Source: Clostridia bacterium
GTDB lineage: Bacteria; Bacillota; Clostridia; Oscillospirales; CAG-272
Assembly (NCBI GenBank): GCA_017466625.1
Contig: JAFTTT010000047.1
Coordinates: 1-45,246 of the forward strand
DNA: 45,246 nucleotides
Reading direction: 5' to 3'
Shown here: positions 9,427-36,513 of the stretch, one piece after another
Numbering within the stretch: position 1 is the stretch's first letter
How the letters are laid out: each line of letters starts with the position of its first letter
Program-made: the position numbers and the translations under genes
Notes under the pieces: model-generated
Told to the model about the DNA's origin: nothing
The model's input: the letters and a program-made list of their open reading frames with translations, nothing else
Databases searched by the model: none

Positions 9427-9966
9427 TTGTTTCCCGAACTCATTTTAGCAGCAAAAAACGGCGATGAAGGCGCGTTTTCAGAGCTTTGCGATAAGTATAA
9501 GCCCCTGATTGAGAATATGACCGACAGATACATTGCGCGTCTGAACGCTATAATCCAAGACAAGGACGACCTGCGCCAGGAGGCGACGGTTGCCTTTTAT
9601 CGCGCCGTGACGACCTACGATATGAGTCAGGACAAGGTGTCCTTCGGGCTTTATGCAAAGATCTGCATAAAGAACAGAATGGTTTCGCTTATACGCCGTG
9701 CAAACAAAAAATCGTCGCCCAAAACGGTCAGCTCCCAAAAGGAAGAGGGAAAGCGTATCGGAGACAGGTTTTTTGATTTCGGCGAGCTTATTTCCGTGTC
9801 GGAGCGGATAATGAGCAAAAGGGAAGCGCTCGTGTTCTCCCTTTACATCGGCGGTAAGACGTATAAAGAAATATCCGAGCTTCTCAAGGTATCCGAGAAG
9901 TCGGTCGATAACGCGCTGTTCCGCGCCAAGTCGAAGATCAAGAGATACTATTCTGATATGCCCTGA
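9427..9966 (+). CDS. sigH: RNA polymerase sigma factor, SigH-like
   Basis: AKNGD..AF, DDL.QEA, SF..YA..CI, G.TYKEI..., KSVDNAL.R; TTG start with GGAGG RBS. Confidence 0.72.
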   Translation: MFPELILAAKNGDEGAFSELCDKYKPLIENMTDRYIARLNAIIQDKDDLRQEATVAFYRAVTTYDMSQDKVSFGLYAKICIKNRMVSLIRRANKKSSPKTVSSQKEEGKRIGDRFFDFGELISVSERIMSKREALVFSLYIGGKTYKEISELLKVSEKSVDNALFRAKSKIKRYYSDMP

Positions 9967-10094
9967 TAGCTTAAGTAAAGCGTTGTATCAATTTTGAATT
10001 TTTAGTTTTAATTTTTTGAATGTTGAAGCAAAGATGGCGGTGACACCCCGTCCGAGGGCAAAAAATATTTACCACATTAAAGCGAGGTAGCAAA

Positions 10095-10370
10095 ATGTAC
10101 GAAGACAAGACTCTTAAGTGTAAAGACTGCGGAAACGAGTTCGTTTTCACCGCAGGCGAGCAGGAGTTCTATGCAGAGCGCGGCTTCCAGAACGAGCCGC
10201 AGAGATGCAAGCCCTGCCGTGATGCACGAAAGAATGCCGGTCAGGCAAGAAAGGAATACTTCACTGCTGTTTGTGCAAACTGCGGCGGCGAAGCAAAAGT
10301 TCCGTTCGAGCCCAAGAACGACAGACCCGTATACTGCAGCGAGTGCTACGCTGCCATGAAGCAGCAGTAA
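10095..10370 (+). CDS. zinc-ribbon protein (zf-trcl plus CxxC-x17-CxxC)
   Basis: DKTLKCKDCG.EF.FT.GEQEFY, PQRCKPCR, CANCG...VPF.P...RPVYCSEC. Confidence 0.92.
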   Translation: MYEDKTLKCKDCGNEFVFTAGEQEFYAERGFQNEPQRCKPCRDARKNAGQARKEYFTAVCANCGGEAKVPFEPKNDRPVYCSECYAAMKQQ

Positions 10371-10413
10371 TTGCCTCATTCCGGGTGTCCCGAAGAACAA
10401 TGTTTTTCAAGAT

Positions 10414-10444
10414 AGAATCCGACCTCGGTCGGATTTTCTCTTTT
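10414..10444 (+). terminator. intrinsic terminator
   Basis: AATCCGACC-TC-GGTCGGATT followed by a T-rich tail. Confidence 0.75.
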
Positions 10445-10447
10445 CTA

Positions 10448-10476
10448 TTGCATTTTTTTGATAAATGTTATATAAT
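10448..10476 (+). promoter_or_regulatory. SigA promoter
   Basis: TTGCAT-N17-TATAAT. Confidence 0.65.
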
Positions 10477-10522
10477 GTTACGGTAGCCCCGCATGGGCAA
10501 TATTGAAAGGATCGCTTTTCAA

Positions 10523-11341
10523 ATGGCTAAAAGAAACAGAAATATAAATTACGGTCCGATTCTCCTTTCCTTTACGGCAATATTCGCCGTTATCGGAATG
10601 ATATTCGAGACCTTGGCAATACTTTTCGGATACGACGCAAATATGCGCGTTTTCAAGCTCGGAAGCAAGGTTGCGACTGCATCGGTCGCGGCGCTGTTCA
10701 TTCTTTCGATCGCTACGATAACGCTTGCAATATGCGTCGGAAAGCTCGGAAAGATGAAAACGAGAGTGCCCAACAGCGGACTTGCAGACGTCATTTCCAC
10801 CGTCGGTGGCTTTGCGCTGGCGGCTTCGTCGGTGCTGCTGCTTGCAGAGTCGTGGGGATCAAAGATAGACGAAGCGGGAGCGCTCAGGGCCTTTACCGTC
10901 ATTCTCGTCATAGTTTCTATCCCTACTGCGCTGTACTTCGTGCTCGGAACGGAGCGAAGAGACCGTCTTTCGACCTTCCTTTCCTTCTTCCCGCCGCTTT
11001 GGAACGCCGCGTGTCTTATCCGCCTTTACTTCGACTCCGAGACGGCAGTCAACGACCCGGTAAGAATACTTCTTCAGATCACACTCGTTGCCGTTATGCT
11101 CGCGCTTATGTATGAGCTCAAGCTTAAGGTGAGAGGAACGGGACATATTATGCTCACAGTTACCGCGCCGGTCGCAACCGTGCTTTCCTGCGCGTCGTTT
11201 ACGTCGATAATACTTCTTTACCTCATCGTGAAGGTCGGAAGCGTGGCAAACGTGCTCCTTTCGGCAGGTACGCTTCTTCTTTCGCTCTACCTTATGACGC
11301 GTCTTGGCGCATACTACGAGTTGCCAAAAGACAGAGACTAA
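10523..11341 (+). CDS. multi-pass membrane hypothetical protein
   Basis: about 8 hydrophobic segments; start MAKRN after a GAAAGG RBS. Confidence 0.78.
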   Translation: MAKRNRNINYGPILLSFTAIFAVIGMIFETLAILFGYDANMRVFKLGSKVATASVAALFILSIATITLAICVGKLGKMKTRVPNSGLADVISTVGGFALAASSVLLLAESWGSKIDEAGALRAFTVILVIVSIPTALYFVLGTERRDRLSTFLSFFPPLWNAACLIRLYFDSETAVNDPVRILLQITLVAVMLALMYELKLKVRGTGHIMLTVTAPVATVLSCASFTSIILLYLIVKVGSVANVLLSAGTLLLSLYLMTRLGAYYELPKDRD

Positions 11342-11343
11342 TT

Positions 11344-11673
11344 AAAAATCCACCCATAACGGTAGTTGCGATAAGGGATTATCGCAGCTACAATGAAATA
11401 TTACCTAACGGTAATATGAAATATTTCCTTGCGGAAATGTGAAATATTGCTATCGCAATATGATATATGCCCTTCGGGCATATTATGGTAAAAAATGATC
11501 CGTTGCATTTTTGCAACGGATCATTTTTATTCCTTAATATTTTCGCGGAAAATATTTCATAGGCGAAGCCTATTTCATACGACGCCAGTCGTATTTCATC
11601 AATTTGCTTTGCAAATTGATTTCATTGTAGGTTGAGCTTGTTCTTAAGCTCAACCTACTAAGGGTGGATTTTT
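11344..11673. repeat. 330-bp composite palindromic element: two inverted five-hairpin modules around a central hairpin
   Basis: outer inverted repeat AAAAATCCACCC/GGGTGGATTTTT; each arm is GTAG-hairpin-CTAC-AAT followed by 4x(GAA + hairpin). Confidence 0.85.
11491..11528. terminator. bidirectional terminator at the centre of the element
   Basis: perfect 17-bp stem AAAAATGATCCGTTGCA-TTTT-TGCAACGGATCATTTTT. Confidence 0.75.
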
Positions 11674-35883: not shown

Positions 35884-36513
35884 ATGAAAAAAGGCATTAT
35901 CGGCAAGAAGATCGGTATGACCCAGATCTTCGATGCAAACGGCAACGTGATCCCCGTTACGGTGATCGAAGCCGGCCCCTGCACGGTCACTCAGAAGAAG
36001 ACCGTGGAGACTGATGGTTACGATGCGATCCAGCTTGGATTCATGGACGTAGCCGAAAAGAAGCTTACCAAACCCGAAGCAGGTCACTTTGCAAAAGCTG
36101 GCGTTTCCTGCAAGAAGCACCTTAAGGAATTCCGTCTTGATGACATTTCCGGATTTAACACGGGCGATACCGTCACCGCTGACATCTTTGCAGCAGGTGA
36201 AAAGGTCGACGTTACCGGAATCACCAAGGGACACGGATACTCCGGTGTTATCAAGCGTTGGAACCACCACCACCTCAGAATGACTCACGGTACCGGCCCT
36301 ATCCACCGTCAGCCCGGTTCTATGGGCGTTATCGACCCCGCACACATCTTCAAGAACAAGAAGATGGCAGGTCAGTACGGTAACGAGCAGGTAACCGTTC
36401 TCAATCTCAGCATCGCCAAGATCGACGCGGAAAAGAACATCATCGCAGTTAAGGGCGCAGTTCCCGGAGCTCGCGGCGGTATCGTCTTCATCCGCAACGC
36501 CGTCAAGGCCTAA
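35884..36513 (+). CDS. rplC: 50S ribosomal protein L3
   Basis: [22 protein letters not shown]. Confidence 0.98.

Follow-up and report, generated by a model that had tools for sequence, protein, structure and literature searches.

The closest described counterpart of the element reported here is Gut-1, an orphan 'sRNA' that entered Rfam in 2010 under the class 'Gene; sRNA' and has had neither host nor function. In the part of the original report considered here, Gut-1 is a candidate noncoding RNA rated 'RNA? Y; cis-reg n; switch n' and listed as 'Human gut only', from environmental sequence only (Weinberg et al. 2010, Genome Biol 11:R31, PMC2864571). Besides that paper, the literature we searched names Gut-1 only as a structure-prediction example. 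A second system of interest is the PF05635 protein family, whose members are regarded as Avd-like and are in some cases encoded in 23S rRNA intervening sequences, according to the portion of the source used here (PMC10053308). Below we connect these two systems through a locus in an uncultured member of the Clostridia. The feature at this locus probably belongs to a dispersed repeat, ~300 nt long and without genes, in which two inverted Gut-1 arms surround a built-in bidirectional terminator and the whole unit sits inside the loop of a host terminator. The arms belong to a known Rfam family; what would be new, as far as literature searches show, is the whole unit as a repeat that inserts into terminator loops.

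The window, by which we mean the whole 45,246-nt stretch of DNA that was analysed, comes from a 1.56-Mb metagenome-assembled genome (MAG) of 130 contigs that is 87% complete (G000). Its nearest named relatives are uncultured 'Clostridia' and 'Eubacteriales' MAGs from the guts of deer and other animals. The feature occupies the 349-nt stop-to-stop gap between two convergent genes, one encoding a 282-aa protein and the other an AraC-family regulator (Table 1). Window positions 9427-11341 hold an ECF-type sigma factor gene (Sigma70_r2/r4), small ORFs and then the 282-aa gene, whose product may be an anti-sigma or membrane partner of the sigma factor.

We folded each part of the feature separately under RNA and under DNA parameters, each time for both strands, and compared the folds with 200 shuffles. 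The 11 hairpins that an earlier note on this DNA had placed between 11344 and 11673 were borne out, five in each arm and a central one of 17 bp. Z-scores across all folds lay between -7.4 and -11.4, and on either strand, with either parameter set, none of the 200 shuffles was as stable. The ATGAAAT junction words and the unlike, self-pairing stems of the two arms were also as that note described them; the likeness of left and right arm is limited to the words and the basal hairpin. The same note had treated the entire interval as one element, and here only the hairpins stood: the outermost inverted repeat is the stem of the host terminator and lies outside the element. The element proper begins at the left basal hairpin, finishes CTAC-TAA-G, and has a G+C content of 35%, compared with 49% for the genome.

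The central hairpin is preceded by an A-run and followed by a T-run, and its stem includes A5/T5 runs; either strand reads as a stem plus a U-run. By sequence and fold, it has the properties of a bidirectional intrinsic terminator. It was not flagged in a simple consensus terminator scan, the rule of which requires the T-run to lie outside the stem. All full copies of the element keep this hairpin, with a variable loop.

Table 1. Coordinates of the element, its parts and the flanking genes in the window.
Feature	Position	Strand	Support
Upstream convergent gene, 282 aa, no Pfam match	10493..11341	+	Stop codon 3 nt before the terminator; adjoins ECF-type sigma factor gene
Host terminator stem, left half: A-run + GC stem	11344..11355	.	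Same stem without insert in L022/L023; X4 contig bridges to the right half
Host loop remnant ATAAC	11356-11360	.	Between left stem half and element
Inserted repeat element, 302 nt	11361..11662	+	Absent from the ~99%-identical X4 allele; ends ambiguous by 3 nt (GGT at both junctions)
Left arm: 13-bp hairpin + four array hairpins	11361-11485	+	RNA MFE -50.8 kcal/mol, z = -7.6
Left basal hairpin hp0, 13 bp, loop contains GGGA	11362..11391	+	Fold; compensatory changes at 4/13 pairs among 9 left arms
Left Gut-1 motif, hairpins between (A/G)UGAAAU words	11391..11471	+	RF01706, 62.5 bits, E = 7.8e-12, full model 1-77
Left array hairpins	11398-11417, 11421-11440, 11444-11461, 11465-11483	+	Fold
Central hairpin, perfect 17-bp stem	11491..11528	.	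Inverted repeat I1, 100% complementary; -25.2 kcal/mol, z = -7.4
Right arm, mirror set of hairpins	11536-11658	-	MFE -50.5 kcal/mol, z = -9.7
Right array hairpins	11598-11620, 11577-11594, 11559-11573, 11536-11556	-	Fold
Right Gut-1 motif	11549..11627	-	RF01706, 53.1 bits, E = 1.8e-9, model positions 1-77
Right basal hairpin hp0'	11627..11658	-	Inverted repeat I4, 100% complementary; compensatory changes at 4/13 pairs among 16 right arms
Conserved element end TAA-N	11659-11662	.	Directly after the right basal hairpin
Host terminator stem, right half + T-run	11663..11673	.	Complementary to 11344-11355 (inverted repeat I2); present in empty orthologous sites and the X4 allele
Downstream convergent gene, AraC-family regulator, 345 aa	11691..12728	-	HTH_18 E = 1.6e-22, plus AraC_binding

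A scan against Rfam 15, which the earlier note had proposed, placed both arms above the 50-bit gathering score of Gut-1 (RF01706). The motif is therefore already catalogued, an outcome that the earlier note had itself listed as refuting its reading, and the suggestion of an 'undescribed' element had to be given up in that respect. Other Rfam matches, among them snR83, IS605-orfB-I (E = 0.71), and precursors of miRNAs, were located on the central hairpin or across the arms, and we take them as chance because all are far below their gathering scores. When the whole genome containing the window was scanned, Gut-1 gave seven matches above the cut-off and two near it, and all nine lie within copies of the element. 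The Gut-1 motif is here one arm of a repeat, and the repeat is gained or lost as a unit. Of 41 relatives, 27 carry the motif at E <= 0.001; a single genome has up to 34 matches, which very often face each other in +/- pairs. At E <= 1e-6, the motif occurs in 28 of the 151 genomes sampled across the class. In two genomes from different families of the order (G031 and G036), a tRNA-Tyr-linked and a tmRNA-linked Gut-1 array (L009/L012) are near-identical over ~190 nt. Intergenic DNA of genomes so far apart would be expected to be much less alike, which suggests that the arrays were transferred or are strongly constrained. We found no printed description of a two-armed terminator-loop repeat in a literature search that covered sources other than the supplement of the 2010 paper.

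Is this repeat an insertion? The earlier note had called for a comparison of orthologous loci, and this comparison yielded empty alleles at the window's own site (site 1) and at two more. At site 1, the six closest orthologous loci (L021-L026) are syntenic, with AraC proteins 76-86% identical. In two of them (L022 and L023), the stop codons are separated by a simple bidirectional terminator alone, with a 4-nt loop and a stem that is the sequence flanking the element in the window. Three others (L021, L024, and L025) have other simple terminators. Moreover, a 1315-nt contig from an independent metagenome DNA run (X4) has flanks ~99% identical to those of the window and lacks the 302 nt from 11361 to 11662. 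Since GGT is present at both junctions, the cut in X4 can slide by 3 nt. Together, the empty stem of L022/L023 and the X4 allele assign the outer inverted repeat to the host terminator rather than to the element. The X4 allele need not be a never-filled site, since slippage between the GGT repeats could have deleted the element from it.

The remaining locus at site 1, L026, carries between 3980 and 4500 an unrelated structured insert of ~440 nt with long GC-rich inverted repeats and no simple terminator. Judging from this insert, the site-1 terminator may be a recurrent landing place.

At site 2, a plain terminator is present in five genomes (G015, G004, G000, G012, and G003; loops AAT, AAAT, GTTT, and AATT), and the site is filled in G001 and G010. 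Site 3 is filled in G010 and empty in G008, which is the sole empty reference, the other genomes of the genus having 3-4 kb of extra genes between the flanks. A separate locus at site 2 (L160, G011:C10, ~35943-35982) holds the element's central hairpin alone, 95% identical, with neither the arms nor the native stem; it may be a remnant or a conversion product.

At all three filled sites, the 5' end of the element adjoins an A-rich loop remnant (ATAAC, GAAA/AAAA, or AGAAAA), and the 3' end is CTAC-TAA-N with at most one host loop base left beyond it. There is no consistent target-site duplication at the junctions, which share 0-4 nt of G-rich identity that varies between copies. We also considered a duplication or guide-like match, for which the first bases of hp0 were compared with the host stem that follows the element. 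The prefix identities were 3, 3, and 4; the 4 needs a one-base shift, and four other copies gave 0-1. Because both sequences are G-rich, this identity is not robust, and we rejected the idea. A classical MITE was set aside as well, given the asymmetric ends (hp0 right at the 5' end, CTAC-TAA-N at the 3' end) and the lack of a fixed-length duplication. Likewise, integron attC-like core sites in the basal hairpin amounted to a degenerate 7-mer match of which ~0.6 is expected by chance.

A repeat search located further copies in the same genome and in sister species, as the earlier note had anticipated. In the MAG containing the window, at least four loci are 91-95% identical; the listed copies are on contigs C39, C19, C82 (two copies), and C121, along with a 67-nt end on C87 whose flank duplicates the C82 flank. 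Three copies in this genome are interrupted by contig ends, and the repeat explains contig breaks in such MAGs. Across the genus, 8 of 19 genomes have matches to the element, including 9 matches in G000 and 24 in G001, an incomplete MAG (79%) that has more copies than any other sister genome; G007 has none. Full copies with 87-92% identity are present in the sister species G001 and G010 at other terminators, and many half copies in the genus consist of one arm plus the central hairpin. Among 15 copies with ORFs on both sides, the flanking genes are convergent in 10 cases, tandem in 5, and divergent in none. The element is an insertion/deletion unit with exact ends, present in multiple copies within and between species, and found only in terminator hairpins downstream of genes. 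The filled and empty sites thus support the mobile-DNA behaviour that had been suspected from the window alone.

How would such an element spread? In our preferred reading, that of a gene-less repeat living in terminator loops, the window copy would have landed at the boundary between the A-rich loop and the descending stem of a terminator formerly common to both convergent genes, the stem halves of which now flank it. The element would be selfish, non-autonomous DNA. Its spread would take place at the DNA level, through recognition of a folded hairpin tip in single-stranded or cruciform DNA, and a mobilising enzyme would act in trans; no transposase or other mobilising gene is linked to the element. 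A trans-acting protein probably uses the arms as recognition modules. At its 3' end, each convergent mRNA would carry one arm, read in the GAAAU sense, followed by the central terminator, an arrangement that the earlier note had foreseen and that the geometry supports. The central terminator would restore termination for both genes, and an insertion that brings its own terminator would therefore be nearly neutral. The repeat targets the loops of terminator hairpins, and carrying its own terminator would be a neat route to harmless selfish DNA.

The stems themselves carry information about the level at which selection acts. The earlier note had called them 'fully covarying'; selection for hairpins holds up, and the comparison between the two arms does not, since the arms are different modules and not aligned positions with compensated changes. 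A whole-arm MAFFT alignment of left against right slid the modules and was unusable for between-arm covariation. Covariation was assessed in homologous arms, 9 left and 16 right, from six genomes. Compensatory changes were found in 10 of 88 predicted pairs in these 25 arms, and 9 of the 10 are within the 13-bp basal hairpins; the four array hairpins are nearly invariant within the subfamily. Between the orthologous copies at site 2 (G001 and G010), both basal hairpins show double changes that compensate each other, indicating that the fold was maintained after insertion or refreshed by conversion.

Among 69 unique hairpins between UGAAAU words, we counted 391 Watson-Crick, 4 G-T, 5 A-C, and 5 other pairs. 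The strand test on these hairpins, G-U against A-C, thus gave no G-U excess and no strand signal. The near-pure Watson-Crick stems and the equal folding of both strands fit a constraint at the DNA level and are unusually 'DNA-like' for a structured RNA. The loops are asymmetric: 48 of the 69 read T..C in the sense of the word, which is GNA or GNNA on the opposite strand. Mini-hairpins of the C-GNA-G type are especially stable in DNA. In each arm, one hairpin has a conserved U-G pair at its outer edge, in 13 of 16 right arms and 6 of 9 left arms. The U-G pair, the asymmetric loops, and the RNA-library contigs discussed below leave room for a role as RNA. In two copies (L096 and L103, at G003:C56 and G003:C66), the right basal loop reads ATCCCT, and the same strand of all other copies has AGGGAT. 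The loop is flipped and its palindromic stem unchanged, as expected from inversion of a hairpin at the DNA level. More generally, these observations are a warning that 'RNA' calls based on covariation can be DNA repeats.

The original interpretation of Gut-1 would make each arm an sRNA gene, with an inward promoter in the basal hairpin driving a four-hairpin RNA of ~110-130 nt that ends at the central terminator. The usefulness of this sRNA, acting for instance as a multivalent decoy of an RNA-binding protein, would then account for the spread of the repeat. We think this unlikely. The Rfam classification and the published rating, which in the part of the source used here places Gut-1 among noncoding RNAs with no cis-regulatory role (PMC2864571), both speak for an RNA gene, as do the strand-asymmetric loops and the U-G pair in each arm. 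Inward promoter-like sequences are present on both sides (TTGCGA-17-TACAAT at 11366-11394 on the + strand and TTGAGC-18-TACAAT at 11653-11624 on the - strand, 9/12 each). However, such sites number 3 compared with 1.5 +/- 1.4 in shuffles, which is not significant, and the -10-like hexamer is CCCAAT or CACAAT in most left arms, where it forms part of a hairpin stem. The metatranscriptome X19 contains short contigs on the arms only, but these are 47-158 nt long and 88-95% alike, come from other copies, and could reflect DNA carry-over. In two further RNA runs (X15 and X20), contigs cover the upstream gene only, leaving the element without cover; the three runs are compatible both with transcription of the element and with its absence. 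The lack of a G-U excess also argues against an RNA gene, and an sRNA gene leaves the precise insertion within terminator loops unexplained.

If the element moves as DNA, a natural candidate for its relatives would be the REP/REPIN-type elements or the IS200/IS605-type elements (PATEs), both of which an HUH Y1 transposase mobilises in single-stranded form. Several features point this way. Both ends carry subterminal hairpins, insertion occurs beside a short A-rich motif at a hairpin tip with no clear duplication, the TAA-N right end resembles the left target RAA(A/C), and the placement at gene 3' ends and between convergent genes is REP-like. Nevertheless, we regard membership in either group as very unlikely. 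The earlier note had taken GTAG plus a hairpin as the REP/RAYT signature, and this did not survive comparison of the copies. GGTAG begins the left arm of the window copy only, other left arms starting with GGGGG, GTGG, GTGAG, GGGAG, or TGTGG, and the GTAGG with which right arms mostly begin consists of paired stem bases. Given the lack of GTAG conservation and of pairing between the arms, membership in REP/RAYT fails. A REPIN consists of two inverted REPs that pair into one long hairpin, and the mutually non-complementary arms form no such structure. The PATE comparison is mixed: hairpins and an A-rich 5' motif are present, but the end hairpins are mirror images, and IS200/IS605 ends would be same-strand copies. 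The distribution of the enzyme is also at odds with this idea. Genes for Y1_Tnp (PF01797) are found in 7 of 19 genus genomes, but their presence is unrelated to element copy number: there were no matches in G000 and G001, the two genomes richest in copies and both incomplete MAGs (87% and 79%), and there were matches in G007, which has no copy.

A different source of a trans-acting protein is suggested by the genes near Gut-1 arrays elsewhere. Genes for PF05635 proteins are present in 26 of the 41 relatives, and between a tRNA gene and the PF05635 gene there is first a terminator, then an array of words and hairpins in two arms, and also a promoter-like site. It is possible, though on balance doubtful, that orphan copies such as ours derive from, and are still served by, a cassette of this kind located after a tRNA or tmRNA gene (terminator, two-armed array, promoter, PF05635 gene), with the protein binding the words of the arms. 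Among the 12 best Gut-1 loci in relatives, 10 directly follow different tRNA or tmRNA genes and their terminators, and 23 of 30 PF05635 loci have a tRNA gene 190-450 nt upstream on the same strand. Each of the 18 gaps that were read consists of a two-armed word array, and such an array was also present in the majority of 10 additional upstream regions and in 12 of 12 extra ones. The two features also co-occur, both in the order sample (both 22, Gut-1 only 4, PF05635 only 3, neither 11) and in the class sample (both 23, Gut-1 only 4, PF05635 only 24, neither 98; odds ratio 23, Fisher p = 2e-10), although related genomes are not independent and the p-value therefore overstates the association.

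The match between proteins and words is less favourable to the cassette. The array word varies by lineage, with at least nine words, including AATGATG, GTGAAGT, GTTATAT, ATGTAAT, TGAATTG, GTTATGA, GCTAAAT, and TCGATATG. A genome with UGAAAU-type orphans should then encode a PF05635 gene behind a UGAAAU array; such a cognate pair was clear in one of six genomes (G001) and possible in another (G003). In G000, G010, G004, and G015, the UGAAAU-type orphans are present, but the assembled contigs hold no PF05635 gene with a UGAAAU array, only with other words, which speaks against a simple master-orphan model. Furthermore, the protein is a 120-aa helical bundle without known nuclease or recombinase activity; it matches PDB 2RLD, an entry with five chains.

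The genome containing the window has several loci of this type. One PF05635 gene follows tRNA-Arg behind an AATGATG-word hairpin array (L134, C79:9840-10421). A second is part of a Val-Asp-Phe-Gly ... Cys tRNA operon and is preceded by mirrored runs of ATTCA words without hairpins (C103:2014-2650). After tRNA-Trp and its terminator there is a hybrid array (C82:5023-5330), with GAAAU words in the forward arm, CAUCAU words in the reverse arm, and a promoter-like site. This array is followed by a membrane-protein gene; G001, G002, and G010 have a PF05635 gene after tRNA-Trp. The C82 array looks like a cassette minus its gene.

Taken a step further, Gut-1-type arrays and PF05635 genes would together form a hitherto unrecognised type of selfish element in gut Clostridia, comparable to the 23S rRNA intervening sequences that carry genes. 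It would home to hairpin tips, with a protein that reads 7-nt words and with gene-less copies as its non-autonomous offspring. This reading is speculative, and we consider it quite improbable. Its targets would lie after tRNA and tmRNA terminators and inside the loops of mRNA terminators, that is, at the ends of highly transcribed RNAs; the words would be displayed four to five times per arm, and words and proteins would diversify together. In either form, the cassette association names the Avd-like PF05635 family as a testable candidate for the protein partner.

How does the terminator-loop repeat compare with systems already described? It resembles the REP, BIME, and REPIN elements that RAYT proteins mobilise in Proteobacteria in being a short, structured, gene-less repeat that occurs many times per genome, in inverted pairs, at gene 3' ends and in gaps between convergent genes, and both could stabilise or terminate transcripts. 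Unlike them, it has no conserved GTAG, its arms do not pair, and no RAYT was found in the window's genome; instead, it has a modular array of words and hairpins, a built-in terminator, and a place of insertion inside the terminator loop. Among intergenic repeats, the BOX elements of Streptococcus pneumoniae and the Correia elements of Neisseria are likewise modular and MITE-like; their internal modules, which vary in number, form stable stem-loops, and the elements are co-transcribed with their neighbours. Their modular, stem-loop-forming design recalls the element described here, but both have defined terminal inverted repeats, in Correia elements with a TA duplication. We know of neither terminator-loop targeting nor a constant-word, variable-stem design in these two families.

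The 23S rRNA intervening sequences that carry PF05635 genes are similar in another way. As presented in the portion of the source used here, they are extra folded DNA at the hairpin tip of a highly transcribed RNA gene, and the same small four-helix-bundle family is associated with them and with Gut-1 elements (PMC10053308). In contrast, the window copy is gene-less and sits in an mRNA terminator, and its link to PF05635 runs through co-occurrence and tRNA-linked cassettes only.

The nearest relative remains the Gut-1 RNA motif, to which each arm of the window copy is a full-length match with three to four small hairpins between (G/A)UGAAAU words, again in gut bacteria. Gut-1 as published, in the part of the report considered here, is a stand-alone noncoding RNA known from human-gut metagenomes only (PMC2864571). 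At this locus it makes up one of the two arms of a multi-copy insertion unit that also includes basal hairpins and a central terminator, and the terminator loops in which it is located belong to identifiable Clostridia MAGs of animal-gut origin. Gut-1 thereby gains named hosts, uncultured Clostridia from both animal and human guts.
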